Positions 19,651-50,624 of a DNA stretch of 64,000 nt are shown piece by piece. Below the pieces are notes generated by a model. The model made no database searches. It was not told the origin of the DNA and saw only the letters and a list, made by a program, of their open reading frames with translations. Within the stretch, counting starts at the first letter, position 1. Each line of letters starts with the position of its first letter. The translations under genes and the position numbers were made by a program. Source of the stretch: a virus; IMG/VR virus record IMGVR_UViG_3300038468_000190, positions 76,125 through 140,124 of that record. One strand, 5' to 3'.

Positions 19651-19652
19651 GG

Positions 19653-19904
19653 TCAAGGGGTCTTCGGGACGGCGCACTCGATGATAAGGGCGTTCGGGGA
19701 CTCGCGGTAGGTGCAGGCGCGGGCGTTCGGGGAGGGCTTGGGACCGTCGCCGATGGTCCAGTGAGCCAGGAGGCAGAAGCCGACAAATGCGACGGCGCCC
19801 AAAAGCCAGAGGAATGGCCCGGGGACGCCCTTACGCGCGGCGACGATCACGCCGACCGTACACACGATGGAGAGCGCGACGTTCATGTGCTCGAAGAACG
19901 TCAC
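19653..19904 (-). CDS. Small membrane protein
   Basis: Two hydrophobic segments; GTGA coupling. Confidence 0.5.
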   Translation of the reverse strand: MTFFEHMNVALSIVCTVGVIVAARKGVPGPFLWLLGAVAFVGFCLLAHWTIGDGPKPSPNARACTYRESPNALIIECAVPKTP

Positions 19905-29500: not shown

Positions 29501-32500
29501 AAGGCCTCGACTTTGACGAGGTCGCTTGGTGGGCCATGCTCGATCTCGTCGTAGCCGACGGAGTCGAGCGCGCGCCGGATCTGTTCGTCCGAGAGCTCGG
29601 ACAGGTTCACCGAGCACGTCTCGGCGTAGTACTCCGCCCAGCCGTCCCGCCGACAGGCGCCCTCGCCGCAGGCGTCGAACATGTTCGTGAAGCGGATCAC
29701 GAACCACGTCCCGTCCGGCGCCTGGCGCGTCCACAGGCCGTGGTAGCCCGCCCAGTCGACGTCGGAGCCGATGTCCGTCCAGCCTTTCATGGTTGTCCTT
29801 GTGGTGCGACGCGGATCTCCTCGAGCGTCGCCAGCGTGCGCGACAGGGACGCGTTCAGGTCGTCGAGCGCTTCGTCTTCGAGCTCGGTGCGGAGGTCAGC
29901 CCAGATGGCTTTCTCGGATTCGTAAGAGCAGCCGCCGAGGGATGCGGTGCCACGAAAGCCTTTCCAGGCCGCCGTCACGAGCACGCTGCCCCAGGCGGCA
30001 TAGTTTCCGTGGGCGAGCTCGCGCCGGATCCAGGCGTAGCATTCTTGGTCGACTGAGTCGTCGCCACTCGCCATGGCGTTGCCTTCGATGGGCAGGTCGT
30101 CCACCTCGAGCGTATACGTAAACTCGACCTCGTCGAGTCGCGTGAGCTTGCGAAGCGTCATGACACACCTTCGCCGGCAAGCGTGAAGTCGACGTGTCCG
30201 CGCGCGAGCAAGGTCTCCACAGGGTCTTCCACTTGGTAGTTTGGAAACCACCAGATACGGCCGCGCACCGTCGGTGCGCCAGCGTCCGAGAACGTGAGGT
30301 CATCGGTGACGATGGGCGCTGAGGTCAGGGCCCCGATCCATTCGGGAGCCACGTAGCTCCACCCGATGCCAAAGTAGCCGTCGAGCAGTCCGCTCCAACG
30401 GTCGCCACGCATGGCTTGCAGATCCTCCAAGTCGTCGTTCGGGCCGATGGAGAACCGTAGGTTCCCGTTTGGGAGCACGTCGAGCGTCATGACACACCTT
30501 CTCCGTTCGGGCATCCGGGCATGCCGCAATTGCACCCGGCGTCGCTCCGCGGCGCGGGAATGTTGAGAGCGTTCCTGAGAACCTGGGTCTCTGCGGCCGT
30601 TAGCAGGAAGTAGCGGACGGCGTCGTGGAACGCATCGATGTAGGGGCGACGCTCCGGGCCGCGCTCTCGGTCCTCCCAGTAGTGGACGAACGCGAGCGCC
30701 GCCTTGATCTTCTTCGGGTTCATGGAGCCGCCTTACGCCGCACCATCAATGCCCGCCGAGTCGGTTTCAGATACATGGACATGAGGTTCGCGACCGTATC
30801 CTCGTCTTGCCGACTGAGCCGCTCCCTGTACTTCCGAATTGCCTCATCATAGGCCTTGCGGCGGGCGCCGCGCACCCCGTCGCCCACAAGGGCGACCTCG
30901 CGCTGGAGCGCAAACTCAGTGGCCTCAAAAACGGCGCGGTTCAATGGGCCCTCTCGCCGCTCATGGCGAGACCCCTTCCGCTCCCGGGCAGAGCTCGAAC
31001 CTGTAGCGCCAGTTTGCGAAGGCCTGGCCGTTCGAGAAATACCACGTGAAGCGATGCCCGTATTCGCCGGGCGCGCAGTTCAGGTTGAGGCCCTCGACCC
31101 GCTTGTTGTCAAACCGAGTGACGGCCCAGTCCGGCCCCCACAGCAAGGGGCCGACCTTGACGCCTCCCACCATGTGGGAGTCGAAGTGTCCGCCGAGGGC
31201 CATTACGCCTAGCTGAAGACTCGTACCGACGGTTCTACGCTCGGGGATGTTCATGTTCAGCCTTCTTGGCTTCGTCGATCGGCGTGTGCAGCGCCGCGTC
31301 GAAGACTTCTGCGATGTAGTCCTTGATCTCGTTGCGGTTCCGCCCCCCGATCGTGAGCCGGAACCCGAACGCGAGCGACGGGCGCACCACCACGCGGTGC
31401 GTGGTCCAGCCGTCGTAGAAGCCGTGTTCGTTCATGTGATGAAAGTCGACGTCGAACACGAGGCTTTCCCCGGTGCTCTTGATGTCGTCGAGCTTGGTGC
31501 CGTTGTCGAAGCCGGAACCGCTCGGAAGGTAGCGCTTGACGAGCTCGGCCGCGCGCGCCTCGTGATATCGATCGTGCCACTCGTCGTTGCCGCTGCGACG
31601 GCAGTTGTCCCGCGCGATGAGGATAGACGCCAGTACTTGGTACAGGGGTTTCGGGGTCACGTCAGTAGCCTCCTCTGAAGTGCTTGAGCCGGTACTCGTG
31701 AAACGGTCGCAAGTGTTCGCGTGCCCACTCGCGGGCGAGCCGTCGAGTTTTGAACGCTCCTCGACTGAGGACAGAGAAGGGTCCCGTTCGCTCCGTCGGA
31801 TGCCAGGGGGTCGGCAGATCCGACCACGGGAGAAGGATCGTGAAGTAGCCCCGGTTCGCCTTACGGCGCAGGCGCGCGAGCTTGCGCCGCGTGACTTTGT
31901 AGGTTCGATTGGGCATCGGCTAGTAGCGGATGACGCTCCCCCGTTCGAGTTTCTTGATCTCCGCCGGGCGAAGTTTGCGACACGGTGTGCCGCCTTGTCG
32001 TCGGGGCCCCACGTGCTTGGTGCAGTAGGCGAACCCCCGGTTGTCGACGTGCGACACGGGATCCCTACACGAGAGATCCATGTCGCACTGTAGTTTGCGG
32101 GCGGTCATGCGAGACCCCCGGCGAACGGTTCGAAAGCCCACTGCCCGGACCCCTGCAGCGTCGGCGCGTGCTTACAGTGGCCATGGTGTACTTGTCCCAT
32201 GCTGGCGAGGTGCGCCGCGCAGATCGGGAACCGGCGAGTTTCGCCGTGGAGAGTGAACGCGGCGACTCCGATCGCTTCGTTCTGGTCGGGTGTGGGGCGA
32301 CCGTTGCAGTCGATCCACTGGATCTGACACGTAGGGCGTTCGGGAGCGTTCACGCGGCCGCCTTTCCGCTGCGAAGAGTGTACTCCCCGACGAACGGCGT
32401 GCCCGGCTGGCGCTGGACGCCCACGTTGACCCCGCCCCGCGGCTGGCCAGCGGCGCGGCGCACTACGGCGCGGCCGAGCACCGCATACACGGCGCCGTCG

Positions 32501-32841
32501 CCCGGGCGTTCTGCGACGCCGCGGAGGTACTCGCGAGCGCGCTCGCGTTCGGACGGAGCGGCGACGGGGGCCGCGGCATGCGCCGGGAGCTCCGGACGCT
32601 TGGCGAGCGCGCGATCGATCGCGCCTTGTAGGTCCCGGACGTGCGCCGGGCCGACCCGGACGACGCCACCTAGCTCGGCTGCGAGACTCGTCGCGGCGCG
32701 CGCCGTCACTGCGAGCACGATCGCGATGCGCCGGTCGCCCGCGGAGTCGTTTACGGTCGCGCTCCAGGCCGCGATCTGCCGCCCGTTCTCGAGGGCTACG
32801 CGGATCGCCCGCGCTTGCTCTGAATCGAATTTGTTGACCAT
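26512..32841 (-). other. Leftward cluster of ~20 short, translationally coupled phage hypothetical genes
   Basis: Examples: 26512..27000, 27363..27653, 27650..28054, 28292..28537, 28534..28896, 28901..29218, 29215..29790, 29787..30161, 30158..30490, 30487..30723, 30720..30944, 30961..31254, 31235..31660, 31662..31916, 32350..32841. Most have ATGA/GTGA overlaps. Confidence 0.75.
30154..30501. repeat. 19-bp exact direct repeat at both junctions of gene 30158..30490
   Basis: AGCGTCATGACACACCTTC at 30154-30172 and 30483-30501. Confidence 0.85.
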
Positions 32842-32933
32842 TGCCGTTTCCCTTTTTGAGCCCGGCTGCCCGGGTTTTGCGCCCTAGCGGCCGAGGAACG
32901 GCCCCCGCCGGGGTGCTCCGGCTGCCTCGAGAC

Positions 32934-33006
32934 GACGTTACGAATAATCTACCATGCATAACGTCTCACTGGTAGACGTTACGATAACTGTGCTTATCAT
33001 AACGTC
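32934..33006. promoter_or_regulatory. Two tandem 32-bp inverted-repeat sites; the second is a dif/lox-like 13-6-13 site
   Basis: GACGTTA-N18-TAACGTC at 32934-32965 and 32975-33006. The second reads GACGTTACGATAA-CTGTGC-TTATCATAACGTC. AT-rich island at the strand-switch point. Confidence 0.75.
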
Positions 33007-33389
33007 GGTCCCTGGCGCCGGCGTGCGCCGGGGGCCGTTCCCCGGGCCCGGGGCTGTTCCTGGGCTCCTAGGGCGCAAACGGCGACCGTCGGAAAGGACG
33101 GCCGGCACGCGAAAGGGAAGATGATGACGTTTTCGGATGCGGAATTCGCCGCGTTTCTCCGAGAGGAGCTCCGCGCGTATGAAGAGGGCGAACACATTCC
33201 GCCCTGGCTCTCGCGCGACGAGGCGATCGAGCAGACTGAACGCGAGCTCAAGCGGCTCGCACGGCAGAGCGAACGCTAAGCGGGGGCGCGTTCCGCGCCT
33301 GCTGGGCTCGCAAAGGGAAGATTCGTCTACGTCCGCTGGTGGCGGATACCAAGCTCCCGGACGTAGCGCAGTTTTGAAAGGGAAGAACG

Positions 33390-35712
33390 ATGCGGAAAAC
33401 GTACCCGGAATGGATCTGGCGCACATACGACGTCAGGCCAACGTGGGCCTACGAGGCCACGATAGAGGAGTGGGCGAGCCACGCGTACGCGACGGTCGCC
33501 AGGGGCCTACGGCCCGCGTGGTTTCTGGCAGAGCTCCACTCGCACGCCAACGTCTCGCGGGGGACCCGATGACGCGCACATTCGTTCTCACGAACCGCCA
33601 CGACCAGCGCGGGATCCAGATCGGGATCCGTCCCCTCTGCGTGGTCGCGTTTCACTTCTGGCGCCGCTACCGCGGATCGCTCGGATGGACGCTGACTTTC
33701 GCGTTCGGGCGCGGCGCGGGCTGCCGATGGGGTCGCACGCTGTACTTCTCGCGCGGCGCGAAGGGTGGCCAGCGCTACCTCTACAAGGCCGCGGGCTTTC
33801 GCGCCGGCTTCACCCAGAACGCCAACGAGACCCCCTACTCTTTCGGCTCTTGATCATGTCCGACCTCCTCGACACGTTCGCCCAAGACTTGGCGCACGCC
33901 GCCATGGCGGCGCACTACGGCGAGGCCGACCGGATCGACGATCCGCTGCTTCGCGCCGCGGGCGAGATCTACCTCGCGTTCGAGAGCGGCCACGTAAGCG
34001 CGCCGCACCCGCACGCGTCCAACGGCCGGCTCAGGTTCGCCGTCTATGTGAGGCCCCGATGAGTGAATTCACCGATTCAATCGAGCGCGAGCTTCGCGGC
34101 TGCGAAGCGTTCAGCGTCGGGTCGTGCCCCGGCTGCTCGGAGTGCGGGCTCGGCGAGGATCCCAGCGACACGGATCGCGAGCTCGCCGAGGAGTCACGCT
34201 TCTCCTGGCGCGCATGCGACTCGTGCGGGAGCACGTTCGGGGGCGACCGGCACCCGGCGCACTACCTCGACGACGAGCGCGCGATCGTCCACGTCCACGT
34301 CTGCACCGATTGTCTCTTCTTCCACGCGAACGGCGACGAGCCGGACGACTGGAGCAAGCACCCATGAACAAGGAACTAGAAGCACTTCTTCTGTCCGCCG
34401 CGAAAGCGCTCGACCTCGGCGTCGTCGGCGTAAACCCCGAGCGCGCCTGTGACTGGGGTGTCCCCATGGGGGTCCTGGTACTCGAGGGCCAGACGATCCC
34501 GGGCCACTCGAAGAAAGCCCGCACGGCGGGCTACTACACGCCCTATTCCGCATGGCGTCCCCCGTCCGGCAAGTGCTTGTTCGTGGACCACGTCGAGCAC
34601 GGCGACGGCAAGAGTCACTACCAGATCTTCCTCCTGTCGGAGGACACGACGGGCTACGGGGCGTTCAACGGGCGGCACGACGGGTTCTCCCTGTCGGAGA
34701 TGAAGGCGTACCTCCGCGGCGTCGCCGACGGCGCGGACATGATTCCAAAACCACGAAAGGGACGACGATGACCGGCGCTGAGGTCACGCGCATCGCACAG
34801 AAACTCGTGGCTGACATGGGTTACGAGGCTGCGTTACAGGACGTCCGGCGCCGGATTCGGTACATGCAAGGGGCGCACCCGAGCTACGGCGCATTCTGGG
34901 AGTCTGTTTTGTTAGAGCTCCTGGCGGCCCGCGTTGTCTGCCACGCCATGCGCCACCTGTCCCCGACTCCGGAGCTCAAGGCGAGCGGCCGGTGCCCGAA
35001 ACTCTTCGAACGAAAGGATCTCCCGTGAGCGACGTTCGCATCGAAACAGGCGGACGCCTGTCGTCGATGGTTCTGATTACGCCGGTGTCCTACGTCGGGC
35101 GCCAGTGGATCGACGAAAACCTACAGGTCGAGGGCTGGCAATGGCTCGGCCGGAGCCTCGCCGTCGACAAGCGATACGCTGCGCCCATCGTGGACGGCAT
35201 GATCGGTGACGGGCTAGACGTGGAGGCCTCCTGATGAATCGCCTCATCCTCACCGAAAACGACCTCGCAACGCTCGTCAATGCGCTCCACGAGGCCGCCG
35301 GCCAATGCCGGCTGGACGCTGAGCAATTCCCGGCGCTGCGAAAAGCCTCACTCGAGTCCGCTGAGCAGTACGAGCTCTTGGAAGAGAAGCTCGCCGAGGC
35401 CGACTCCATCATCGTGGAGCGGAGCCCATGAGCGCCGCGGCAACCGTCTGGTGCGCCGACTGTGGCGACGCGTACGACGCGCCGCTCGGCTGCTGCCCAA
35501 ACTGCGAGTGCGTAGAGAGGCTCACCGAGCGCACGAAGATCATCGTCACACTCGAAGTCGCCGGCAGTCCCGACGACGCCATGACGGCGGTCGACCAGGC
35601 CCTGGACGAGGGCGTACTGCAAGACTTTCTGAATCAGCACGACATCGAAGACGTCGGTCCCGTGCACGTGCTCACCGCGGTCGCCCGCTTCGACGGATCG
35701 GAGAACACATGA
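33390..35712 (+). other. Rightward cluster of short coupled phage hypothetical genes
   Basis: 33390..33572, 33569..33853, 33856..34062, 34059..34367 (Cys-rich), 34364..34771, 34768..35028, 35025..35234, 35234..35431, 35428..35712. Confidence 0.7.
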
Positions 35713-37250
35713 CACCCAGCCAGAAAACGAACGTCGACATTTCGGCCTTGCTCCGCGCGCGAAACACGCTTGTCTGGATCACGTCGCGGGAGGAGGTGCG
35801 CGTCGAGCGCGCCATCATCGAGGCGGCCGGCGCGGCGAAGTTCGAGACGCGGTTTTGGGACTGCGCGACGGGTCTCACGGCTTCGGACGGCAAGGTCCTC
35901 GCCAACATCCCGAACGCCTACTCCGTGCTCGAGAGGATCCGCGACGACAAGGCGCGCATGCTCTACGTCCTCCGCGACATCCCGGCGTGGTTCGATCCGC
36001 AGGTCGTCCGGATGCTCCGCTCGCTCGCCAGGAGCCTCCCCGGCGCGCCGAGGGACGAAGCGCGGGCCATCATCATCCTCACGCCGCGCGGCGAGGTACC
36101 GCCCGAGCTCGCCGGCCATGCGACGGTCATCGACTATCCGCTGCCTGCCCGCGACGAGATCGCCGAGGTGCTCGAGACGGCGCTCGGGGGATTGCCGGAC
36201 GAATTCCGAGCCGCCGCGACCCCCACGAACGGCCTCCGAGAGCAAGCGATCGACGCCGCCGTCGGCCTCACCGCCGAGGAGGCCAGTAACTGCTACGCGA
36301 AGAGCCTCGTCACGACGAAGCGGATCGATCCCGCGCAAGTCTCCTCGGAGAAGCGCCGGGTCATCGCTCGAGAGAAAGTCCTCACCTGGTACGATCCGGA
36401 GCCCCGCGGGCTCGACGCGGTCGGCGGCCTCGAGCTTTTGAAGGACTGGCTCAAGGCGCGCCGCTCGGCGTTCTCGCAAAAGGCGAGAGACTTCGGCCTG
36501 CCCGAGCCGAAGGGGTGCCTGCTCGTGGGCGTCCCCGGCGGTGGGAAGAGCCTCACGGCCAAAGCCATCGCGACCGCGTGGGGCATGCCACTCCTGCGCT
36601 TGGACCTCGGCGCGCTACGGTCGAAGTACGTGGGCGAGAGCGAGGGCAACATCCGAAAGGCCCTGGCGGTCGCCGAGACCGTGGCGCCGTGCGTGCTCTG
36701 GCTCGACGAGATCGAAAAGGCCCTGGCGGGCGCGACGGGCGCTCAGGGCGACGGCGGCGTCTCAGCGGACGCGCTCGGCGCGGTGCTCTCCTGGATGCAG
36801 GAGCGCCAGGCGCCGGTGTTCGTGGTGGCGACCGCGAACAAGGTGAGTGACCTCCCGCCGGAGCTTCTCCGGAAGGGCCGTTTCGACGAGCTCTTTTTCG
36901 TGGACCTACCGACCCCAGCCGAACGCAAGGCAATCCTCCGGACGACCCTCGCGGCCTTCAAGCGGAGCCCGGACGGCATCGACGAGGACGCCGTCGCGCG
37001 GGCGACGCAGAGCTTCACCGGCGCCGAGATCGCGGCCATCGTGCCCGAGGCGATGTTCGTGGCGTTCGGGGAGGGGGAGCGCGCGATCCAGACCGAAGAT
37101 CTCCTCGCCGCCGCAGCGCGCGTCGTGCCGCTCGCCGAGACCGCAAAGGAACAACTCGCCGAGCTCCGCGCCTGGGCCAAGGGCAAGGCGCGGCCCGCCG
37201 CGACGCCCGTCGCCGAAGCGCCTCGTAAGCCACGGGAGCTCGACCTCTGA
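35709..37250 (+). CDS. AAA+ ATPase, Ycf46-like
   Basis: Walker A 'GVPGGGKS', Walker B 'VLWLDEIEK', 'VVATAN', SRH 'LPPELLRKGRFDELFFVDLP'; N-terminal 'WITSREEVRVE'. Confidence 0.9.
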   Translation: MTPSQKTNVDISALLRARNTLVWITSREEVRVERAIIEAAGAAKFETRFWDCATGLTASDGKVLANIPNAYSVLERIRDDKARMLYVLRDIPAWFDPQVVRMLRSLARSLPGAPRDEARAIIILTPRGEVPPELAGHATVIDYPLPARDEIAEVLETALGGLPDEFRAAATPTNGLREQAIDAAVGLTAEEASNCYAKSLVTTKRIDPAQVSSEKRRVIAREKVLTWYDPEPRGLDAVGGLELLKDWLKARRSAFSQKARDFGLPEPKGCLLVGVPGGGKSLTAKAIATAWGMPLLRLDLGALRSKYVGESEGNIRKALAVAETVAPCVLWLDEIEKALAGATGAQGDGGVSADALGAVLSWMQERQAPVFVVATANKVSDLPPELLRKGRFDELFFVDLPTPAERKAILRTTLAAFKRSPDGIDEDAVARATQSFTGAEIAAIVPEAMFVAFGEGERAIQTEDLLAAAARVVPLAETAKEQLAELRAWAKGKARPAATPVAEAPRKPRELDL

Positions 37251-37281
37251 GCTCCGCAGAACAACAAGGGAAGAACCGACC

Positions 37282-38028
37282 ATGACCACGACATCGCTCC
37301 TCAAACCAGGGTTTCTCGTCAGTCTGAAGACGTCGCTACAGGGCGGCGTCTCCTACCATCGGGTCGACCTCGACGCCGACCGGCCCGAGGGCGACCCCGC
37401 GGCCATCGCGCGCTGGGAGACCACGCGCCGCATCGACGACCCCGACGAGCACAAGCGCGCGACCAAGGCGCGGAGCGCCGCGAGCTCGCTCATTCGAGCG
37501 GTCTGCACGCATACGGCGTTCGGGCTCTTGTGCCCGGAGTCCAAAGCGGCCGAGCTCGACGAGGCGATCCAGGGCGCGCAAGCGCTCATCGACGCTCACA
37601 ACCAGGCGGCGCACTCGACCCACGTCCGGGTCTACGTGCTCCGCGGCCGCATCGCCTCGACCGACGAGGAGGCCGTCAGGGCCCTGTCGAGCGAGGTCCG
37701 AGAGGTGCTCGAGGAGATGCAGGCCGGCATCCGTCGGGTCGACGTCACGGCGATTCGAGAGGCGGCCACTCGAGCCCGAAAGCTCGGCGCGATTCTCGAC
37801 GCCGACCAGGCCGCCAAGGTGAACCGCGCCGTCGAGGCGGCGAGAGACGCCGCCAAGCAGATCGTCAAGCGCATCGACGTCGAGGGCGCGGAGGCCGTGC
37901 GCGCCGTGGCCGAGGGCATGAGCGGGCCGATCGAGCAGGCGCGGTTTTCGTTCCTCGAGATCGAGGAGAGCATCGCCACGCCCGTCCACGTGCCGGCCCA
38001 AGCGGCCCGTGATCTCGAGGTGCAGTGA
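37282..38028 (+). CDS. Helical hypothetical protein linked to the AAA ATPase (DUF3150-like)
   Basis: 248 aa directly downstream of the ATPase. Confidence 0.6.
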   Translation: MTTTSLLKPGFLVSLKTSLQGGVSYHRVDLDADRPEGDPAAIARWETTRRIDDPDEHKRATKARSAASSLIRAVCTHTAFGLLCPESKAAELDEAIQGAQALIDAHNQAAHSTHVRVYVLRGRIASTDEEAVRALSSEVREVLEEMQAGIRRVDVTAIREAATRARKLGAILDADQAAKVNRAVEAARDAAKQIVKRIDVEGAEAVRAVAEGMSGPIEQARFSFLEIEESIATPVHVPAQAARDLEVQ

Positions 38029-38031
38029 GCC

Positions 38032-38367
38032 ATGCCCTGCGACACGGTACGTCTCTCGCCCGGCCAGACCCTGGCCGAGCGGATGGCCCAAGTGAAGGCG
38101 GCCCTTCAGCGTCTCGAGCAGAAACTCCAGAGCGGCGCCGTGCGCCTCGGCATCGGCCCGAACGGCGCCGTGGTCTTCCAGGGCTGGGCGGACAGGGACG
38201 GCGTGACCGACGTCTGCGCGTACCGCTCGCTCGCCGCGGAAAACTCCTGGGCGCTTCGCCAGGCCGTCGCTCGCGCCGAGCAATTCAGCGGGCGCAAGGT
38301 CAACGTGAACGCCGTCGCCGCGGGCGTGCACTCGCACGACGGCGGCCGGTCATGGGACAAGCACTGA
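38032..38367 (+). CDS. Hypothetical protein (AAA module)
   Basis: 111 aa, 'MPCDT...RDGVTDVCAYR...GVHSHDGG'. Confidence 0.65.
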   Translation: MPCDTVRLSPGQTLAERMAQVKAALQRLEQKLQSGAVRLGIGPNGAVVFQGWADRDGVTDVCAYRSLAAENSWALRQAVARAEQFSGRKVNVNAVAAGVHSHDGGRSWDKH

Positions 38368-40044
38368 TGGCAAACGATATCGAGTACGCCTACGACGGGG
38401 AATTCTGTCTGGAGATCCAGAAACGCCACAACTGGCCCTGGTACATCGGCGTCGGTCCGTGGCGCAAAGAGCTGGAGGGGCGCGTGGCCATCCGGATACC
38501 GACCGGTGGCATCGCGTCCGGCACCATGCTCGTGCCGCGCCCTGAGTACGACAGCTTGCCCGACGCGATCAAAGCGAAGCTCGGGCCTCCCAAGGAAGCG
38601 CTCGAGGATACGCGCGAGCAGGCCGACGCGGCCGAAGCACTGGGCCGGGCACTGGTCGCGCTCAGCCGACGAAGAACACGGAGACGCTGAGAGCATGAAA
38701 GCAGAGATCATCGACCTCGGAGGCGGCGAACGCGTCGTCATCGGCAAGATCAAGCCGCTCGGCGCGCGGGAGTTTTGCCGCGAGCTCCACCGCGGCGAGA
38801 GCGGGAAGTTCGCAAACATGCACGTCCTACTCACTCGGGATGAGCTCGCCGAGCTCGGCGAGGCGGTTCGGGCTCTTCTCGAGGCGGCCAGCCCTGTTCC
38901 CTACGGCCCGAGGATCCCGGTCGACGAAGCCGAGCTCCGGCGCCGGTGCCAAGAGTGCGGAGCCCCCGCGACCTTCATGCGGACCGATACAATCGTCGGC
39001 GGGGGGCACCGCAGGACCGTCTACTGGTGCGATGAACATGACGACGGCAGAGCCGAGATGGAGCCGTGATGACAAACGAGGAACGTATTGAACGCGCCGA
39101 GCGGTACGTCGTGAAGCTCCTGACGTCCCAGTACCGGGACCGCATCTCGAACCTCGAGAGCAAGAACATCGGCCGGCAGTCCAAGGTGCAGAAACGATGG
39201 ATCGCCGAAGCGAAGGCGGCGCTACAAGCCGCAGAAGACGACGCCCGGATCATCTTCCGGGAAGTGATCGAGGGCAGACTGGAGCCGTGATGCAAGCGAA
39301 CAAGGACCACCTCCTCCACATCGGAGAACTACTCGGCATCGTCTTCGGCGGCAGGCCCAATACGGTGCAAGTGCTGTCGGCAATCGCTGCCAAGATCCGA
39401 GACATCCACGTGGCGATCATCCGGCTCTACCCGGACGACACCATGCTCGGCGGGCACCCGGCCGACTGCAAGCGGCGCATCGATAGGCTGCTCGCCGCGG
39501 GCGCGACCAAGGCCGCTCGAAAAGGCCTCCTGTGACCACCGCGCCGCGGAAGAACGGCTTCTTTGGTGGCCACCTACTCTGGACGTGAACCATGGCAAAA
39601 CGCAAAGCAGTGCTCCGCGTCACGGTGGAGTTCGACGATCGGGCAACGAGCGAGGTGCTCTTGTGCGGAGCACTCGACGACTTCCTGCGAACCGCACCTG
39701 GCAAGCTCGCCGAGCCCGGCACGCCGATCTACGCAGTCTTCGGGCCGTTCGAGGTAGCCGTACCCGACTGGGCGCCGAATCCGACGGTGGCCAAGCCCGA
39801 GAGCTTATGTGCCGTGCGGGACTGCGGACGCGCCGGCGTGAACGCGACGTGCCCCTACGACGGCTCGAGTCACGGCCACGGCCGCGTCCACTACGAGTGT
39901 CACAAGCGCTGGGTCCCGTGGACCGAGCTCGAGTTCGAGGACCTCGCCGTCGGCGGCTGGCGGCTCATCTGCCGGGAGCACCTCGACCAAATGAACTCCG
40001 AGATCCAACAAGAGCAGGCCCAGAGGGCCGAGAGCACCACGTAA
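38367..40044 (+). other. Coupled hypothetical genes
   Basis: 38367..38690, 38695..39069, 39066..39290, ~39290..39535, 39592..40044. Confidence 0.65.
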
Positions 40045-40488
40045 ATGTCCGACAACCGCTCAGCCTCGGAGCTCATCAAAGAGCTCCGAGACCAGATTGC
40101 CGCGCTCCCTTCCGACAAGGAAGGTTTCGGGCGCGACGTCGCGCTCAGCCTCATGGATCTCATCCTCGAACGCGTCGGCGCCTGGCCTCCGTTCCCTGCG
40201 TCCGGCGAACGCCCCGGCATCGAGTTCAGTCTCGGGCTTTACCGGCACTACAAAGGGGGTTTCTATACGGCGCTCGGGCTCGTCTTCCATCACGAGAGCC
40301 GGCAGCCGATGGTCCGGTACATCTGCCACGAGACCGGCACCGAGAGCGTGCGCTCGCTTTACGGTCACCCCGGCGATCCCGACGGCTGGAAGGACCGCGT
40401 CGAGTGGGAGGACGGCGGAATGCTGCCGCGCTTTTGCTATGCGGGTCCGCCGGGACACGCTGAGATCGTCCGCGTCCTCCTCCCCTGA
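40045..40488 (+). CDS. DUF1653-domain protein
   Basis: 'GLYRHYKGGFY...HHESRQPMVRY...RF'. Confidence 0.75.
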   Translation: MSDNRSASELIKELRDQIAALPSDKEGFGRDVALSLMDLILERVGAWPPFPASGERPGIEFSLGLYRHYKGGFYTALGLVFHHESRQPMVRYICHETGTESVRSLYGHPGDPDGWKDRVEWEDGGMLPRFCYAGPPGHAEIVRVLLP

Positions 40489-40823
40489 AACCCTTTGGGG
40501 GCTCCCGGCCTGGGTTAGCCGGCGGTGCGGTTCCTTCCCTCTTCCTCACCGTCCGCCCCGGCCGGGGGCTTCCCATCTAGCCCGCACGAAAGGACACTTC
40601 TACCCATGCACCGCCTGACCCCCGTGAACGCCGTTCTCGCGGGCGCGCTCGCGCGCGTGATGCCGCGTGGCGAGGGCAAGGTCGACTGGCTCGACGTCGC
40701 CGATGAGTTCGTCCTGGCGACGGCGCACACGCTCACCATCCTCGACAAGAAAGACTACGACCGCTGGGACGGCGAGCTTCGCCGGGCCAAGGAGTACCTC
40801 CGAGCCCTGGGAGTCCAGATGCC

Positions 40824-41354
40824 ATGACGACCAACATCCGCGAGGATCACGCCGTTTCGTTCGTGGAGCTCGTAGAGAAGCTCGTCGAGCTCGCCGTCCG
40901 GGACTCGATCGGCCCCGGCCAGTGCATCGCTGCGCTCAAGGTCGCGGCGGCGTCGCTCTCTCTCGAGCTCCCGACCGAGGTCGTCCGGGCAGGCCGGGCC
41001 TTCGGCAAGGACTTCGCGACCGAAACCCCGGAGGGGGCACTTCGCGGCATGGCGCGCCGCGCGCTCGACGAGAGCGAGAAGGCGATCCCGGAGACCCTGC
41101 CCGACCAAGCGCTCAAGGACCTCGTACGGCGCGCCACGAACGCCATCACCGCCATCGACCAGAAAGACGGCCTCGGGACGCTCATCGTGCTTCACATGGC
41201 GTCGCACATTTCGATGGCCATCATGAAATCGCAGAGCACGGAGGACGAGCTCGCGATGAAGCTCACGAAGTTTCTGACGGCGCGCCGGATGATTGCCCGG
41301 ATCGAAATGGACGTGCAACAAATCGGGCATATGACCCGAGGAGGAGACGCATGA
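40824..41354 (+). CDS. Helical hypothetical protein
   Basis: 176-aa ATGA-coupled ORF. Confidence 0.6.
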   Translation: MTTNIREDHAVSFVELVEKLVELAVRDSIGPGQCIAALKVAAASLSLELPTEVVRAGRAFGKDFATETPEGALRGMARRALDESEKAIPETLPDQALKDLVRRATNAITAIDQKDGLGTLIVLHMASHISMAIMKSQSTEDELAMKLTKFLTARRMIARIEMDVQQIGHMTRGGDA

Positions 41355-41728
41355 CCGTCGCCGCCAAGGACGCCGTGGCCGGCAAGATCTACCGTCTGAC
41401 GCGCGAGAGCGGCACGACGTACTACAAGATCTGCGACGCGGCCTCGGTCAGGCGCCTCGAGAAGCGCCTGTCGACGCAAAGCATCCAGAGCATGAAGCCG
41501 GCGGACAGGTTCGCGTGGGCGGCCATCGGCCGCTGCCGGAGCCGCGGGCACGTCCTGTCCGTGCGCATCCTCCGCTACCGTGACGACGGCGGCAGGCCCC
41601 ACGAGGCCAAGGCGTACGTCGACTTTCCTCCGGACTACGTGCTCCGCGAGGTCGAGCGTCCGCCGGGCTACAGCGCCGGACGGCGGCGCGGACTGGACAA
41701 CGGCGGGGCGGAGGCGGAAGATTCATGA
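41351..41728 (+). CDS. Hypothetical protein
   Basis: GGAGG RBS and ATGA coupling. Confidence 0.55.
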   Translation: MTVAAKDAVAGKIYRLTRESGTTYYKICDAASVRRLEKRLSTQSIQSMKPADRFAWAAIGRCRSRGHVLSVRILRYRDDGGRPHEAKAYVDFPPDYVLREVERPPGYSAGRRRGLDNGGAEAEDS

Positions 41729-42183
41729 CGACCATGGATGATCCGACACATCCGGACGAAGGCGGAGATGTCGTCACGGACGACACGACGGTCGGTGAGC
41801 TACAGAAATGGCTAGCCGATCACCATGTGACGCTCCGCTTTCGGCTCGTGCCGATATTCCCGCTCGCTCCCGTCGCCTCGCTCACGAAGAAAATCAACGA
41901 GGCTATTAGCCTCCGACGCCACTATCTGACATTCAAACGGAACCGCACATGACCGGCCCGGTCGAGCTCGTAAGTTTCCGACGGCCACGGCTGCCATGTC
42001 GGCGTACGACGCCGACCTCATCGCTCGCGGCTGGCTCATCGACGAAACGGCAGCGCGTCCGGACAGGGAGACCAGCCGGGTCCGGCGGTGCCTTCACGGC
42101 GTGCCGCAGGACACTTGGTGTGCCGACTGCGGCCGAGACGAATTCCTCGAATCACCGTCCGAGCCCGGACAGGAGCCCCTAGC

Positions 42184-42714
42184 ATGACCCGCTCCACGTA
42201 CATCACCGTGCCCGCCGACACGCGCCGCTTCTCCTGGCGAAGCCCGAACGGCAAGACCGGCTCCTTCCGCCCGAACGGCCCGATGACGCTCGAAGGGCGG
42301 CGCGCAGACTTCGCGGAAAACCCCACCGGCTGGTCGAGCCGTGCGCCGATCTACGCCGCGCGCATCTTCGTCGGGTTCAACGTGGGGCCGAGGCCGCGCT
42401 GGACGATGAGCGACGTCGTCCAGATCGTGAAACGCGTGCGTAAGCGCCAGGTCGGCTCCCCGGACGCGACGTTCCTCTATCAGCGCGGGCTCTACACGAG
42501 CAAGGAGGACCGGTCGGTCGTCGACGAGAAGGGCGCGCAGATCATCATCCTGAACCTCTCGGGCGCGACCGTGAAGGAGTTCCGAGCGCAGATGATCGAG
42601 CTCGGTGAAGAGATTGCGGAGAAGCTCCGTCAGGAAGAGGTGATCGTCGAGATCCAGAAAGGCGGCGTCTCCAAAGAGACGATCGGGATCACGCCCGTCA
42701 GGAGAGCAGGATGA
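42184..42714 (+). CDS. Hypothetical protein (DUF3574-like alpha/beta pattern)
   Basis: 'ARIFVGFNVG', 'GLY', 'IAEKLRQEEVIV'. Confidence 0.55.
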   Translation: MTRSTYITVPADTRRFSWRSPNGKTGSFRPNGPMTLEGRRADFAENPTGWSSRAPIYAARIFVGFNVGPRPRWTMSDVVQIVKRVRKRQVGSPDATFLYQRGLYTSKEDRSVVDEKGAQIIILNLSGATVKEFRAQMIELGEEIAEKLRQEEVIVEIQKGGVSKETIGITPVRRAG

Positions 42715-44376
42715 GCGCCGAGGAACTCCTCAGGGACGTGCTCGCGTCGGTCGAGCTCGCCGAGGTAGACCCCCGCCGCGTCGTGGTGCGCTCGTTCCAG
42801 CTCGGGCTTCTCGCCGCAGTCGAAGAGTGCGAACGCCTCGCCGCGTCGTCTCCGGCTCTGAAGGATGACGTGCTGAAGCTCGCCGTGCGACTCCGGCATC
42901 GGGCGAAGGAAGCGCGTCTTTGATCCCCAAGACAAAGCTCTTATTCAACGGCGATGATGGCAGGAAACCGCAAACCGAGGCGCGCCGTTACGTGTACCGG
43001 ATCCTCCGCACGATGCTCGACCATGAACTCCAGGACCGCGACGGATGGATGTTCGGTGGTGTCGAGCGGGAGCCCGATGTTCGCCGACTGACGAAAGCAG
43101 TCGAGGCGGTCAAGAAAGAGCTGCTTCGCAAGGTGGCTAGGTGAGCGAAGAAAGCGAGCGTGCGCCGTGAAGCAGTCGGAGCTACGTGGCCCGGACTACC
43201 GGATCAAGAAAGAGAGGGTTCATTGACCCAGCCAATCGGCACGCAACGGTTTTGGATCTCCTGGTGGGGAGGTGACGGAGAAGACTGCCGCCCATGCTAT
43301 GTCGACCTCGCTCCGGAGTTTCCGTGGTGGTGCTCCGGGGAGCGCGAAGGAGACCCGCCATTCTCGCTCTGCGCCGTGGTTGACGCGCTTAATGAAGAGT
43401 GCGCGCTGACCATGGTGCGCAAGTTCTGGCTCGAAGCAGACCTGATATTCTGCAAACCGAAACCGGATGGGTGGATGCCAGAACCGACGCGCTTTCCGCC
43501 GAAGGTGAGCGTGCTGGAGAAACCTGCGGTGCGACCGTGAAGCAATCAGGAAAAGGCAGATCAGGCGCCGCCATGAGATTTCTTGCGTTTCTTCCTGCGC
43601 TCGGCATCGCTGCGTTCTTTATCGGAGTCTTCTACGGACGCTCGGTAGAACGCGAGCGCGAGGCGCCTCTGCTCAAGGCCTTGACGGACCGCATGCGCGT
43701 CTCCGAAGACAAGCTCGCGGCGTGCTCGTCGAAGCTCCTCACGGAAACCCGCGGCGCCGACGCGATGCTCGAGTGGTACGAGCAGTGCCTCGACGGCCGC
43801 ACGTGCACCACGGCCGGCCCGGGCCTCGAGCTCTGGCGGCACTTCAAGCCGCCGACGCTTCCGCACCACTCGCTCGAGCCATCGACCGATCTGCCCGTTG
43901 CCAAGAATCCTCCGGTGCAACCGTGAAGCACGGAGGCCACGTAGTCCCGTCGCTTGTGGATCTGGAGGAAAATCCGGACGCAATCGCCGAAGCCGTGTTC
44001 GAGATGGTGCTCGCGGCTCTGCCGCCGGAAGTGCTCGCGGCTATAGGCCCGGAAGTGCTGGACCGCTTGCGCCAGAATCATCTCGCTCGAGTTAGGGACG
44101 CCCGACCCAGGGCGCGCAAATGAAAGGTGCCCTCATGAAAGCCAAGCGAGTCGCACGTAAGCCGTTGACACGTGCGGAAGCCGAACAGTGGGCCGTCGAC
44201 TGTGAGAGACGCGCAGCGGAATACTACAAATGGTCATGCCATAACAGCGACTTCACCCCGGACCTAGACCCGCTCGCTGCACGAGACCGCCGCCATTCGG
44301 AGGAGCTACGCGCCGAGGCAGCGCGGTGGCGCAGAATCGGCGAGGCCCTCGGTCGTTAAAGAGAGAAAGGACCCTT

Positions 44377-44571
44377 ATGAAAGCCAAGCAGTTCGTACGT
44401 GACCACGTGCTCCCAGCCGGGGGCGAGCTCCTGAAGAAGGACGGTGACCACCACGTCTACCGCTTCCCGAACGGCCGCGTGATGGTCGTGCCGATGGGCG
44501 GTAAGCACAGCGAGGCCAGGCCCTACCTTGTCCGGCGTCTTGAAAAGCTCCTCACCGGCGCGGGCACATGA
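44377..44571 (+). CDS. hicA: HicA-family toxin-like small protein
   Basis: 'GGELLKKDGDHHVYRFPNGRVMVVPMGGKH' matches the HicA dsRBD-like pattern; AAGGA RBS. Confidence 0.65.
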   Translation: MKAKQFVRDHVLPAGGELLKKDGDHHVYRFPNGRVMVVPMGGKHSEARPYLVRRLEKLLTGAGT

Positions 44572-44661
44572 CGCTCGTCGTCGCCGGGGTGGTCATCTTC
44601 TCGCTCGGCTTCGTCTTCGGCTTTGTCATCGCAGAAGCGCTCCCCCGCGACTGAGCGGCAT

Positions 44662-45096
44662 TCACCGAAGACTCCGTAGCATCCCACGGAACGCGTCGTT
44701 CGAGAGAGCCCTGACCCCGAAAAGATCTGTCCTCCGGTCTCTCACGATGCGACCCGCCCTTGCGCCGCTCATGCCGGTCAGCATGTGGATCGCGAGCGCC
44801 GCGACGAGCGCCGAGCGGTTTCGTCCCATGTTGCAGCTGATGAGCACGCGGCGGCCTACCGAGACGTCGTGAGCGACGGCGCTCGCCGCTCGCCAAGCTT
44901 CTCGCCAATCCTCGTCACTCGGCCGCCCCGTGTCATTGAACGGGAACCGCCGTACGATGACACCAGGGAAGCCGTAGGCTGGCGGCTGGTACTCGAGACT
45001 CGTGAGCACGATGACGTCGAAGCGCCCGCCGTAGTATCCGGGCTCGGGGGCACTGCCGACCCAGATCCCACGGTAGACTTCTGTTGCGTCGAGCAC
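44662..45096 (-). CDS. Dual-specificity / tyrosine protein phosphatase
   Basis: CX5R motif 'VLISCNMGRNRSA'; 'IWVGS', 'FPFND'. Confidence 0.88.
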   Translation of the reverse strand: MLDATEVYRGIWVGSAPEPGYYGGRFDVIVLTSLEYQPPAYGFPGVIVRRFPFNDTGRPSDEDWREAWRAASAVAHDVSVGRRVLISCNMGRNRSALVAALAIHMLTGMSGARAGRIVRDRRTDLFGVRALSNDAFRGMLRSLR

Positions 45097-45160
45097 GACA
45101 GTCGACTTTAACCCAAAAGGGTCCTAGGAATCGAGCCTCCGCGATATTATCGTAACGTAG

Positions 45161-48100
45161 ATGTTCTCGGAGAACCGTCCCGAGCTCGCCCTGCTTCGCG
45201 GCAAGCGCGGCCCCGACGTGCTCGAAAAGTGGACGGCTGTCTTCGGCGAGGGGCGCCAGGATACGACCGCGCGCTACCGGGAGATCCTCGATCGCATTGC
45301 GCGCCCTACCGCCGGCGAGGGGCCGTACGTCGGCCGTTACTCCAAGGAGACGGGGCGCGCGTACGGGCACGCCATCGCCGAGTTTTTCGAGTGGTGCGCA
45401 CGGCAGCATCGCCGGCCCGTCCTACCCCGCGAGGTCAGCCGGCGAGACGCCGAGGACTACGTCGCCTGGCTCGCCGATCGGCCCTTCAGCCTCGAAGAGG
45501 AGCGCCTCCGAGACGGCGACGCCGAGGGCCGGCTTACCATTTACGAGGCCGTGAAGAAGCTCGGCTCGGCCGATCTCTCGAGCATCCGGGCGGAGCTTCC
45601 CGAGCGGCTCGGAAAGAACAAGGCCGCGCTCGCGCACGAGCTCGGGCGGATGGTCCTTCACGATCTCCTCGTCCGGAGCCCGACGCTCGACGAGCTCAGA
45701 AAAACCGATCCGCAGATCGGCATCCGTCACTTCTCCGTGCCGATGCCCGGCGGCGGCGCCATGGATCTCGACGACGTCTTCGTCTACTCGACGCCGGAGC
45801 CCCGCGGCCTCAGCCGTTCGACGATCGCGCTCCGGCTCTCCGCCCTCTCGCGCTTCTGGCAGGAGCTCTGCCGCGGCGATCCGGAGACGCCGCCGCTCGT
45901 ACGGTTCAACGTGTTCGACGAGATCTTGTCGCGCGTCTCGCGGGGGCTCGCGGCCGATAAGCGCGCCGCGCGCGCGCGTAAGGCCCGGCTTACGCCCGAG
46001 CTCGTCTCGCGCCTGCTCAATGCGGCTGACGGCCAGACGCTCGTAGAGAAGCGCGACGCGGCGCTGTTTTGGTTCGTGGTGCTGATGGGCTCGCGCGTCA
46101 GCGAGGCGCGGCTCATCCTCCGGGACAAGCCCCGCGACGTCCACCACGCGCCGGGCTGGCTCGAGCCGCTCTCGACGCCGGTCGTCGTCGAGCTCGTCCG
46201 AAAGGGCGGCGTCCACCATCGCTTGCCCTATCCGCCGTACGCCCTCCGAGCGCTCTACGCGTTTCAGACCGAGCTCGAGCGCCACGCCGCGCCCCGCGGG
46301 AGCCAATCCGAAGATCCGCGCTCGCCCGGCTACGTCCAGCCGCGCTCGCCCAAGTGGCGCTACAAGGCGCTAGCCGAAGAGCCCGACGCGCCGCTCTTTC
46401 CTCCGGTCGTCTTCTGGGGCGCAAACTCCCCCGAGCTCTACGAGGAGCAGAAACCGAATCCCCTTCGGCCCGACTACCGCCGGCCGATGAGCGCGGCCGG
46501 CGTCCGGGCGATCTTGAAGAAGATCGCCAAGAAGGCCGGGCTCTCGCCGGAAGAAGAGCGCGCCGTCCACAGCCACGCCTTCCGGCACTTCGCGGCGACG
46601 GCCATGGCCCGTCGCGGTAAGCCCCTCCGCGAAATCAAGACCCTCCTCGGCCACTCGAGCATCACCGTCACCGAGGGCTACGTCGAGGACGAGACCGACT
46701 TGGCCGCGCTTTCCGGTCAGAACGAAATTCTTGACTACATCGCGACCGGCGAGACGGCGCCTGGCGCGCCCGCCCCCGCGCCCGCGCGCGTGGCGCCACG
46801 AGCGCCTCCAGAAGCGCCGCCGGCTCCCCCTCGGGTCATCGAGACGGTCGGCGTCAGAGCCCCTGAGAGGCGCCCCGAAGAGCCGGGATTGCCCGCCGAG
46901 TCGCCCACCGCCCGGAAGGGCCCCGAGACGCACGAGGTCGGAAGGGGCCTCGTCGCCGTCTCGGAAAAGGGGCCGCTCCCTCCCGACCGATTCCCCGGAA
47001 AGCCCGACGTCTCGGCGGGCTCGCCCTACTACGCCTACGCCGACATCGGCTCGGAAGACGCGGCCGACAGAGAGCCCATTCACTTCACCAGGGTAGGGCC
47101 CGCTCGAGCCTCCACGCGCGCGACGCTCTACGAGAAGGCCGGCAAGAAGATGGTCCAGGAGGATCCGTTTCTCGCCCGCCACTACGATCCGTGGCCGCTC
47201 GGCTACGGGATTGGCGAGACGTCGCTCCTTCCGTGGTTTGCGCGCGGCGCTGCCTCGAAGCACGGCGACGTCGTCGTCGACGTCCGCACGCGTACGGGCG
47301 AAAAGAAGAAGGCCGTCGTCCCGCCGCTTCCCGTCTTCGCCCCCGAGCAGCTCTACTCCGAGCTCAAGGCGAAGACGCTCTTCTCGCGGGTCGAAGCGAT
47401 GCGCGAGCGGTTCCTCAAAGAGGAGCCGACGAAGGCGTTCGGGCTCGACAGGTGGTGGGGCGCCTTTCAGGAAATCAGTAAGGGCCTCTCGGCTGGCACG
47501 AAGGGGAAGTTTCGATTCGTGCCGTTCGAGTCGGCGGGGGCGGTCGGTAAGGACGTCCGCGCCCACGACGACGAGTACCTCGCCGCCTGGCTCGAAAAGA
47601 ACGCCGGCCGCTACACGACGACCGTGAGGGCCTTCGAGAGCATCGAGCGGCCGCGCGGCGGGGCGCGCGACGAAGAAGAATGGGCCGCCTTCCGGGAGGC
47701 GTTTGCAAAGGCGTCGCTCGTCGGCGTGAGCCCGGCGGAGGAACTGCCGGACTGGTTTATCTTGGACGATCCCGTCAAAGACATCTGGAAGCAAAACCCG
47801 GAGGAGTGGGAGTGGTTTTCGAAATGGATCGGCGCCGTGACGGGCCAGAAGCTCACGAGCGCGCGAAAGGACGAGCGCGCCTCCGAAGTCCGGCTCGCCG
47901 AAGAAACGCGCCGCACGCGGATCGACGAAGCCCGCGAGCTCCTCAAGGCCTACTTCGAAAGCGTCGAGACCCTGCACCGCGCGGGGCGCGCGCGCGACAA
48001 GGACGAGGCCGACAGGGAGCGCGAGACGATTGCCCTTCTCACCGAGCGCCTGGGAGCCCTCGGCGTCAGGGATCCGAAGACGGCCAAAGAGCTCCCCCGC

Positions 48101-49991: not shown

Positions 49992-50624
49992 TCACGATCG
50001 GCGCAAATACCTGCGTTCGTCATCGAACATCATGCTGTGCTCGATGAGCTTTACCGCCCGGTGCTCGCCCGAGAGGGCCTCGATGATGAGCGCTCGGGCA
50101 ATCGCCGTCGGCGTCGTGCCAATGGCCGCCGCCCGGCGCTTCAGGGCACGGTTTGCGCCCTGCGTGATCGTCGCGCGCTCGAGAAACGGCGACCGCTCCG
50201 CGGGCTTTCCCATCTTGTAGCGCTTGCCCTTCCAGTACCAGAAGGAGAGCGCGCCGGGCTCCTTGTCACCCATCAGGTACTCCTGAATCAGAGCCCGAAG
50301 AAGCACCGGCCCGCGGAGCTCCCGATACGCGCACTCCTCGAGCCACGCCTTGTGCACCGGCGGCGGCATGAACAAGTGAAACTGGTAGTAACGCTTGAAC
50401 CGCCCGCTCTCGTCCGGACGCGCCGACGTGATCCTGAGGCCGTTCTTCGACTTTTGGATCTTCGCCTCGGCGCGCGCTTCGAGAAGGAGCTCCGCTTGCA
50501 CGCCGAGCCGCTCGGCGAGCGCGTCGATCTCGTCGTCCCTCGCGGGGAGCGTCGCCCACTTCGTTCCGAGGAGGCGCTCGAGAAGCCAGCTCCTGAACGA
50601 ATAGACGCGCTCCCAGCCGCTCAC
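49992..50624 (-). CDS. Putative DNA-binding protein with two RHH-like units
   Basis: 'LFMPPPVHKAW...LLRALIQEYL' and 'ITQGANRALKRRAAAIGTTPTAIARALI'. Confidence 0.5.
   Translation of the reverse strand: MSGWERVYSFRSWLLERLLGTKWATLPARDDEIDALAERLGVQAELLLEARAEAKIQKSKNGLRITSARPDESGRFKRYYQFHLFMPPPVHKAWLEECAYRELRGPVLLRALIQEYLMGDKEPGALSFWYWKGKRYKMGKPAERSPFLERATITQGANRALKRRAAAIGTTPTAIARALIIEALSGEHRAVKLIEHSMMFDDERRYLRRS

Follow-up and report, generated by a model that had tools for sequence, protein, structure and literature searches.

Two adjacent 32-bp imperfect palindromes occupy an intergenic region from which two blocks of viral genes diverge, and an arm of the second palindrome recurs, inverted, at the very start of a gene some 12 kb away that encodes a giant tyrosine recombinase. 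One sequence-specific protein probably recognises all of these arms, and the recombinase is the most likely binder. Our preferred interpretation, which we hold tentatively and at somewhat less than even confidence, is that the giant recombinase binds every arm, with the second palindrome (subsite 2) as a crossover core and the first (subsite 1) as an accessory subsite, that occupancy of the arms would repress the promoters there, and that the lone arm at the recombinase gene would serve autorepression. A dedicated regulator is a serious rival to the recombinase in this role.

The window, by which we mean the whole 64,000-nucleotide stretch analyzed, forms the final 64 kb of one virus record, which is 140,124 bp long and has a GC content of 66%. 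This genome (G000) was compared with five related viral genomes (G001 to G005) and with more distant or metagenomic relatives (L-numbers); two relatives, 138 and 136 kb long, have been classed as complete genomes with terminal repeats. The last ∼250 bases of the record (window 63598-64000) match genome positions 183-437 (within genome 1-437), both in a gene encoding a collagen-like Gly-X-Y repeat, so that the assembly broke inside this repeat and the record is probably circular or permuted and not truly linear. Gene calls based on GC3 place minus-strand genes from ∼13.8 kb to 32841 and plus-strand genes from 33121 to ∼43 kb; the strand switch described in the first-pass annotation is thus borne out, and the palindromes sit within a 279-bp divergent intergenic region (Table 1). 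The 163-aa product of the first leftward gene has homologs in G001, G002, G005, and G004 (78-35% identity) and an N-terminal α/β domain with a predicted fold at pLDDT ∼90, for which Foldseek and a wide VIA-align search gave no significant fold match (best Z score 5; T7 Gp2 at Z 4.7) and the fold searches gave no match to a DNA-binding fold. On the other side of the switch, G001 holds an unrelated ORF where G000 has the 52-aa first rightward gene. Elsewhere in the window, an AAA+ ATPase is encoded at 35280-37250 on the plus strand (phrog_8638, E 7e-158) with ∼69% DNA identity to AAA-ATPase genes of Mycobacterium phages such as YungJamal, Firecracker, and Catdawg, the sole similarity to isolated phages found within the searched stretch 30001-38000. 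A 639-aa ORF (17758-19677, minus strand) matches PHROG transposase families (phrog_506, E 5e-53), and an 81-aa ORF (44326-44571, plus strand) has a weak match to HicA toxins (E 0.004) that falls under the cut-off.

Both palindromes have the form GACGTTA-N18-TAACGTC, with positions and sequences as originally annotated; their starts are 41 bp apart and they are 72% identical when compared as direct repeats. Subsite 2 has 13-nt arms, 12/13 symmetric (92% complementary), around an asymmetric 6-nt spacer, and its inner core reads ATAA-N6-TTAT(G), in agreement with the lox/dif-like geometry first ascribed to it. The 12-mer arm, ACGTTACGATAA, is present at 32976(+) and 45147(-), with a one-mismatch copy at 32994(-); 0.05 matches are expected from shuffled sequence, and none of 100 shuffles reached three. 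The exact and inverted recurrence of 32976-32987 at 45147-45158, 2 nt before the recombinase ATG, was likewise confirmed, and a motif scan of all 140,124 bp, proposed with the original observation, found the arm at the switch site and the recombinase start and no further copy of the 12-mer. Both loci are among the most AT-rich spots of the genome. As a control, random 25-nt windows of this GC-rich genome were found to share an exact 12-mer with sequence elsewhere in 58% of trials; raw recurrence of a 12-mer is therefore not evidence on its own, and the significance rests on the rarity of the AT-rich arm, the position of its sole extra copy at the recombinase start, and its recurrence in relatives.

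Table 1. Positions (window numbering) of the palindromes, their arms, the predicted promoters, and the neighboring genes
Feature	Coordinates	Strand	Description
First leftward gene, 163 aa	32350..32841	-	Gene call; adjoins the site in 4/5 related viral genomes
Left GC-rich mirror-repeat arm	32876..32910	.	5' leader of leftward operon; inverted repeats I1, I2
Subsite 1	32934..32965	.	Imperfect palindrome; outer-left arm H1 32934-32947, weaker inner arm H2 32954-32965
Predicted rightward σ70-like promoter, in subsite 2	32973..33000	+	TAGACG, 16 bp, TATCAT; promoter scan
Subsite 2, candidate core site	32975..33006	.	H3 32975-32987, spacer CTGTGC 32988-32993, H4 32994-33006
Right GC-rich mirror-repeat arm	33026..33079	.	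5' leader of rightward operon; inverted repeats
First rightward gene, 52 aa	33121..33279	+	Gene call
Cys-X5-Arg phosphatase-like protein, 144 aa	44662..45096	-	Divergent from recombinase gene; DSPc E 1.4e-4, phrog_10650
Predicted recombinase promoter	45125..45153	+	-35-like TAGGAA 45125-45130, 17 bp, -10 TATCGT 45148-45153; read by eye
Lone arm	45147..45159	+	Exact reverse complement of H3 over 12 nt; overlaps -10 to start codon
Giant tyrosine recombinase, 1279 aa	45161..49000	+	Sole Phage_integrase-family gene in genome
210-aa partner gene of recombinase	49992..50624	-	Near recombinase in L019-L021, L027, L028, L031, L039

The AT-rich center is flanked by GC-rich inverted repeats (I1 and I2, with 30-nt and 20-nt arms), the left side of which is 87-90% complementary to 33026-33079, and for this reason the leaders of the two divergent transcripts would be nearly the same and would contain a CCC-N-GTTCC motif. 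The right leader is nearly identical to that of G001 over ∼60 nt. The motif, written CCC-N-GTTCC(T), is mirrored on either side of the AT-rich center, is kept in all six viral genomes and in L028 (40-400), comes to 10-13 nt from start codons in G003 and G005, and has one similar copy beyond the window, at genome position 67415; a role as an RNA element or as a second binding site is conceivable. An Rfam search gave nothing above threshold within 32000-34000, and σ54 and ECF-type readings of the GC-rich flanks were dropped on inspection by eye as their spacing did not fit.

The site is conserved across relatives, as the original proposal implied it should be: G001-G005 keep the layout, and L028 and L039 repeat its logic. 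Every one of the six genomes has two ∼32-bp imperfect palindromes of the form ACGTTAC-N16/17-GTAACGT with starts 41-43 bp apart, and all four arms carry a (G/A)TAACG core; the outer arms H1 and H4 are the best conserved, and the CGTTA core of H1 is invariant in the six. The inner ends of the second palindrome lie 6 bp apart in each genome, around a spacer whose sequence differs each time. Throughout G001-G005, the motif TTA(T/G)NN(T)AACG was found only at the divergent intergenic region and at the recombinase start, and the two are 9-15 kb apart with conserved gene order. Two other readings of the site were rejected. An invertible switch was suspected from a central element of G001 that seemed inverted relative to G000, and realignment places the CTGTAC/CTGTGC spacer identically, with no inversion; a protelomerase target was rejected because the spacers CTGTGC, CGTCAC, CTACAC, and GCTGAC are not self-complementary.

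Beyond this close group, the recombinase gene of L028 (product 40% identical) is preceded, 8.8 kb upstream, by a palindrome in which 13-bp arms (11/13 symmetric) surround a 6-bp spacer and which CCCCGTTCC motifs follow; an exact second copy of its 12-mer arm, in opposite orientation, stops 6 nt short of the recombinase ATG. In L039, whose recombinase shows 42% identity within the N-terminal 528 aa, two 9-bp arms and a 5-bp gap make up a perfect palindrome, which fills the 17-bp spacer of a TTGACT/CAGAAT promoter ahead of a GroES-like operon, and the palindrome 9-mer recurs over the recombinase -10, 4 kb downstream. Arm identity among the six close genomes is 10.8/12 within a genome against 10.2/12 between genomes (permutation p 0.058), and because covariation is weak here the case rests on L028 and L039. 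Within the same recombinase family, a putative autoregulatory layout of a different kind is found in L027 (7733-7875, before a 40%-identical recombinase), where three direct copies of GTAGA(Y)(K)GC lie within two ∼24-nt repeats and the last overlaps the -10. The rest of the L006 contig (48 kb) contains no related palindrome, the expected position falling off the contig. A scan of viral contigs with the palindrome pattern recovered the site of G002 itself and two unrelated AT-rich phage contigs, in which no relative of the giant recombinase was found. The unrelated AT-rich phage L074 (IMGVR_UViG_3300012983_000036) carries a perfect 13-6-13 palindrome at 878-905 with the spacer TGTATA, as in Escherichia coli dif; this may be a dif mimic, and the record, which is 45% complete, yielded no relative of the giant recombinase.

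Across the 140 kb, PF00589 matches the recombinase alone. Pfam analysis places the match at residues 276-510 (E 7e-17), with SAM-like N-terminal domains also present, and the catalytic residues R312, K348, H472, R475, H498, and Y507 are invariant in seven homologs, as befits a tyrosine recombinase. Its best NCBIfam matches are the XerA, XerC, and XerD models, all far under their cut-offs (top score 70.5 bits against an XerA cut-off of 220), and only the last ∼70 residues of the catalytic domain align, which places the protein outside XerA, XerC, XerD, and XerS. The C-terminal region of ∼700 aa is conserved among relatives, and fold searches with this region (689 aa) gave no significant match, nor did the Atlas return anything. 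The divergently transcribed phosphatase-like gene shares a 64-bp promoter region with the recombinase gene and also lies beside it in L019, L020, L026, L028, and L042. Searches of the genome for HTH_3 and HTH_17, and for ParB_N and ParA-like (AAA_31) domains, returned no matches.

The 12-nt arm copy at the recombinase gene stops 2 nt before the ATG at 45161 and overlaps TATTAT at 45145-45150, as the first-pass annotation had it; the overlap stands, and comparison with the relatives favors as the -10, over TATTAT, the hexamer TATCGT at 45148-45153, 7 nt upstream of the ATG. The pattern CTAGRAA-N17-TANNNT-N6-8-ATG is kept before the recombinase orthologs of G000-G005, and in ∼20 metagenomic relatives the recombinase ATG is preceded, at 6-10 nt, by a -10-like hexamer and not by a Shine-Dalgarno sequence. 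Because the conserved predicted promoter ends 6-8 nt before the ATG, the recombinase mRNA is probably leaderless, or nearly so. Autoregulation through a half site and an operator shared with the divergent promoters had been put forward as alternatives, and the link between arm and recombinase start, where the arm lies over the -10 to +1 of this predicted promoter, exceeds chance and fits either option.

Cumulative GC skew has its minimum at genome 38-40 kb and a plateau maximum at 100-121 kb, and the site, at genome 109.1 kb, lies opposite the minimum; the sign of the skew depends on the genome arm rather than on the strand of the genes. Each genome has one full palindrome, and when its placement was compared in G000, G001, and G002, which are close relatives, the site lay on a broad plateau in G000, at the maximum in G001, and 15 kb from the maximum in G002, where the latter falls at the recombinase gene. 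As far as three close relatives and a broad plateau can indicate, the position would fit a resolution site in the terminus zone. At genome 38-46 kb, the skew minimum is accompanied by a second gene divergence near 46 kb, a consensus-like TTGACA/TATAAT pair at 45763, and two weak RHH_1 matches (35059-35157 and 44722-44802); this region may be the replication origin region.

From these observations we infer the arm binder, the strand exchange, the repression, and the transcription starts of the following model. Two recombinase monomers would bind the 13-bp arms of subsite 2 across the asymmetric 6-bp spacer and so form the crossover core, and subsite 1, four helical turns away, would act as an accessory subsite, as in the IRS of Tn4430, the res of Tn3, or the rst of Tn4651. 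Two copies of the site, paired on a dimeric or concatemeric circular genome, would allow resolution to monomers. Occupied arms would cover the -35 and -10 of the divergent early promoters and repress both, and a single monomer at the lone arm (45147-45159) would block the -10 to +1 of the predicted leaderless recombinase promoter, giving autorepression. We favor a recombinase site because, in G000 and its five relatives, the arm motif is confined to the switch and the recombinase start, because the same logic recurs with different arms in L028 and L039, and because the arm length, the fixed 6-bp spacer of freely varying sequence, and the single-arm copies are typical of tyrosine-recombinase sites. 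The arms of G001, in which the shared GGTAACGT part looks like a binding motif rather than a common -10, point the same way, as do the presence of a sole PF00589 gene with intact catalytic residues and no HTH_3 or HTH_17 match, the location of the site on the skew-maximum plateau, and the existence of promoter-carrying resolution sites autoregulated by their recombinase (PMC7157771).

The nearest functional parallels are promoter-bearing resolution sites that their own recombinase represses, namely Tn3 res, Tn4430/Tn5401 IRS, and Tn4651 rst. In Tn4430 (TnpI/IRS) and Tn5401, a core of two inverted motifs is combined with single accessory motifs that have a 9-bp core in common, the cleavage stagger is 6 bp, and the IRS of Tn4430 carries promoters whose expression is modulated by the TnpI recombinase (PMC2847244, PMC7157771). 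The phage system resembles these in having a tyrosine recombinase and inverted core motifs with extra single motifs of common sequence, the four arms of its two subsites, 41-43 bp apart, sharing the (G/A)TAACG core throughout. However, the IRS lies directly upstream of tnpI and TnpI is small, whereas the phage enzyme has 1279 aa with a tail of ∼700 aa. Tn3 res and Tn4651 rst contain several imperfect palindromes in a divergent promoter region, where binding of the recombinase represses both sides, and the rst has two inverted-repeat pairs between divergent genes and is served by a tyrosine recombinase with a helper protein (PMC2847244, PMC7157771). The Tn3 resolvase, in contrast, is a serine recombinase, and in both transposons the recombinase gene flanks the site, whereas here the 163-aa and 52-aa ORFs do so. 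The main difference from all of these resolution sites is the distance, the full site lying 12.2 kb from the recombinase gene (9-15 kb in relatives), with one arm at the gene.

In dif sites, a 6-bp central region separates two arms of partial dyad symmetry, with an ATAA/TTAT core on the inside (PMC3025954, PMC5357621), and the arm length, 6-bp spacer, and single-arm copies seen here all have precedents among tyrosine-recombinase sites (PMC2847244, PMC5357621). Subsite 2 resembles dif (as used by XerC/D, XerS/difSL, XerH/difH, and XerA) in arm geometry, kept in G001-G005 and L028, and in the presence of one full copy per replicon, which in G000 and G001, though not in G002, lies in the zone of the GC-skew maximum; the recombinase is closest to Xer models, and single-Xer systems are genetically linked to their site. 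The arms, however, are 13 bp long here against 11 bp in dif and their outer sequence is unrelated, the phage recombinase is four times the length of Xer and far under the Xer cut-offs, and the second subsite and lone arm have no counterpart at dif. Cre/loxP of P1 is a case in which a large phage cyclizes its genome and resolves dimers by means of a tyrosine recombinase that it encodes, acting at one palindromic site whose arms are 13 bp long; loxP has an 8-bp spacer and no accessory subsite and adjoins cre, and P1 is a plasmid prophage with a partition system. Compared with loxP and FRT, the phage site has arms of equal length (13 bp) but a spacer of 6 bp instead of 8 bp, and its layout is not that of a simple site; a partition system like that of P1 was not found in the phage genome.

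Several observations stand against a recombinase site. Known self-encoded resolution systems keep gene and site adjacent, but here they are 12 kb apart; the arms are conserved more than they covary in the six close genomes (p ∼0.06); ParA and ParB, which would point to a plasmid-like prophage in need of dimer resolution, were not found; and the skew maximum of G002 is at the recombinase gene. The palindrome of L039, with its 5-bp gap and its place exactly between -35 and -10, looks like a classical operator, and many uncharacterized neighboring ORFs, including that of the recombinase-linked 210-aa partner, could encode the true binder.

The rival that survives best is a serious one, which we consider possible though less likely than the recombinase: the palindromes and lone arm would be operators of a dedicated regulator, encoded by the phage (for example the 210-aa or 163-aa protein) or by the host, that co-regulates the divergent early operons and the recombinase gene without strand exchange. 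Subsite 2 appears to cover both hexamers of a predicted σ70-like promoter; these match at 9/12 positions, their 16-bp separation falls within 16-18 bp, and in a scan of 32000-46000 (shuffles average 1.1) this was the only promoter-like match in 14 kb, with rightward transcription predicted to start near 33007. An adjacent palindrome pair between divergent operons is a classical phage-switch layout, and the promoter-filling palindrome of L039 also suits an operator. Operators of the λ OR/OL type are adjacent palindromes over divergent promoters, typically of 14-20 bp, bound by helix-turn-helix dimers encoded alongside. The palindromes here differ from these in their length of 32 bp, in a genome where no HTH_3 or HTH_17 gene was found, and in the single extra arm at the recombinase gene. 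A palindrome of 32 bp with 13-bp arms is long for a dimeric repressor, and a half-site on its own makes a poor target for a dimer; a single arm is nevertheless what the recombinase gene carries in every lineage. Among candidate regulators, the 210-aa protein, a putative alternative binder or helper and the best such candidate, accompanies the recombinase in all lineages, and the Atlas gave a weak lead from it to ribbon-helix-helix clusters, but that lead gained no support from Pfam, a PDB profile search, or a six-frame RHH_1 search; more generally, HTH_3, HTH_17, and RHH domains lack support in the candidate genes, and the 163-aa protein has no DNA-binding fold match. In L027, L031, and L039, the 210-aa gene lies directly upstream of the recombinase in the same operon.

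A second rival dispenses with a dedicated binder and takes the shared 12-mer as a promoter consensus (-10 and downstream bases) of three transcription units. The well-conserved copies H1, H4, and the lone arm do face their downstream genes in G000-G005, the arms contain TANNNT hexamers, and the recombinase copy is at a leaderless distance from the ATG in ∼20 relatives. We nevertheless regard this explanation as improbable, as it needs two registers. In G001, all four switch arms read TTG(T/C)GG or TTGGG against TTATGG in the recombinase copy, so that TTATNN provides no -10 there; these arms lack TANNNT in the register of the recombinase copy and yet retain GGTAACGT, which argues that the shared part is a binding motif and not a common -10. 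In the alternative register, TAACGT would end only 2-5 nt before the recombinase ATG and therefore cannot serve as its -10. Relatives with recombinase identity of at least 46% have a conserved AACG after the -10 that completes the arm, whereas more distant relatives keep the -10 (TAGAAT or TAGACT) without the TAACG part, and the arm would thus combine a promoter element with something clade-specific. The arm of L028 is flipped relative to its gene, and the exact 6-bp spacing of the inverted arms is left unexplained by a promoter motif. A common DNA-binding protein would explain the G001 arms, the TAACGT register, and the flipped L028 arm more simply than a pure promoter motif does.

Very unlikely, in our estimation, is that subsite 2 mimics dif for the XerC/XerD of the host, for dimer resolution of the cer/psi type or for IMEX-type integration at the host dif. 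In its geometry, subsite 2 agrees with dif at the inner ATAA-N6-TTATG core and the 6-bp central region, the right arms of G003-G005 have nine bases in common with the XerD arm of E. coli dif, and the site is within the skew-maximum zone. When G000-G002 were scanned with E. coli, Bacillus subtilis, and Frankia dif as references, the site ranked no higher than background: arm-only matches reached 15-16/22 by background in G000 and G001, with subsite 2 absent among the matches listed, and in G002 subsite 2 merely tied at 15/22. The idea of a canonical dif thus fell away, since three references fail to single the site out; with dif it has in common only the inner ATAA/TTATG core, and it appears dif-like in geometry only. 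Furthermore, the outer arm GTAACGT is conserved in the phage lineage and found again at the gene for the phage recombinase, over which a host Xer would have no cause to exert control. An att role in integration, another suggestion of the first-pass annotation, found no support either, as only two MAG contigs among 185,579 species genomes encode a relative, with no integrated copies and no split attL/attR site seen in the two. Because ParA and ParB were not found and relatives are nearly absent from species genomes, neither a plasmid-prophage lifestyle nor chromosomal integration is supported.

Least probable of all, a replication origin with iteron-like arms, whose initiator also represses its own gene, would suit one of the most AT-rich spots of a 66% GC genome, with GC-rich inverted repeats around it, genes diverging from it, repeated arms plus a copy at a gene start reminiscent of iteron/operator logic, and a 700-aa C-terminal region of the recombinase without known fold, but the cumulative skew is maximal at the site, its minimum and a second gene divergence are at genome 38-46 kb, and no initiator, helicase-loader, or DnaA-box signature was seen.

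If the recombinase binds the arms, the 32-bp core site and its enzyme would form a compact pair from an unexplored family of very large tyrosine recombinases, in an unusual layout in which 12 kb separate the gene from a site lying within divergent promoters, and the gene itself carries just one, autoregulatory arm. The pair could then also serve as a new tool for site-specific recombination, its site having 13-bp arms and a 6-bp spacer, and the principle of res and IRS, by which a recombination site doubles as an operator, would reach beyond transposons to large phage genomes. If a different protein is the binder, the element would be the operator set of an early genetic switch in a phage group with almost no annotated genes. 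More speculatively, and with considerable doubt, giant tyrosine recombinases of ∼1,250-1,500 aa with an Xer-like catalytic part, from GC-rich phages of ∼140 kb, may constitute a previously undescribed family that acts both as genome-dimer resolvase and as master repressor of divergent early operons through a two-subsite res/dif-like site in the terminus zone; limiting itself through a single arm on a leaderless promoter, such an enzyme would couple genome-copy topology to early expression.
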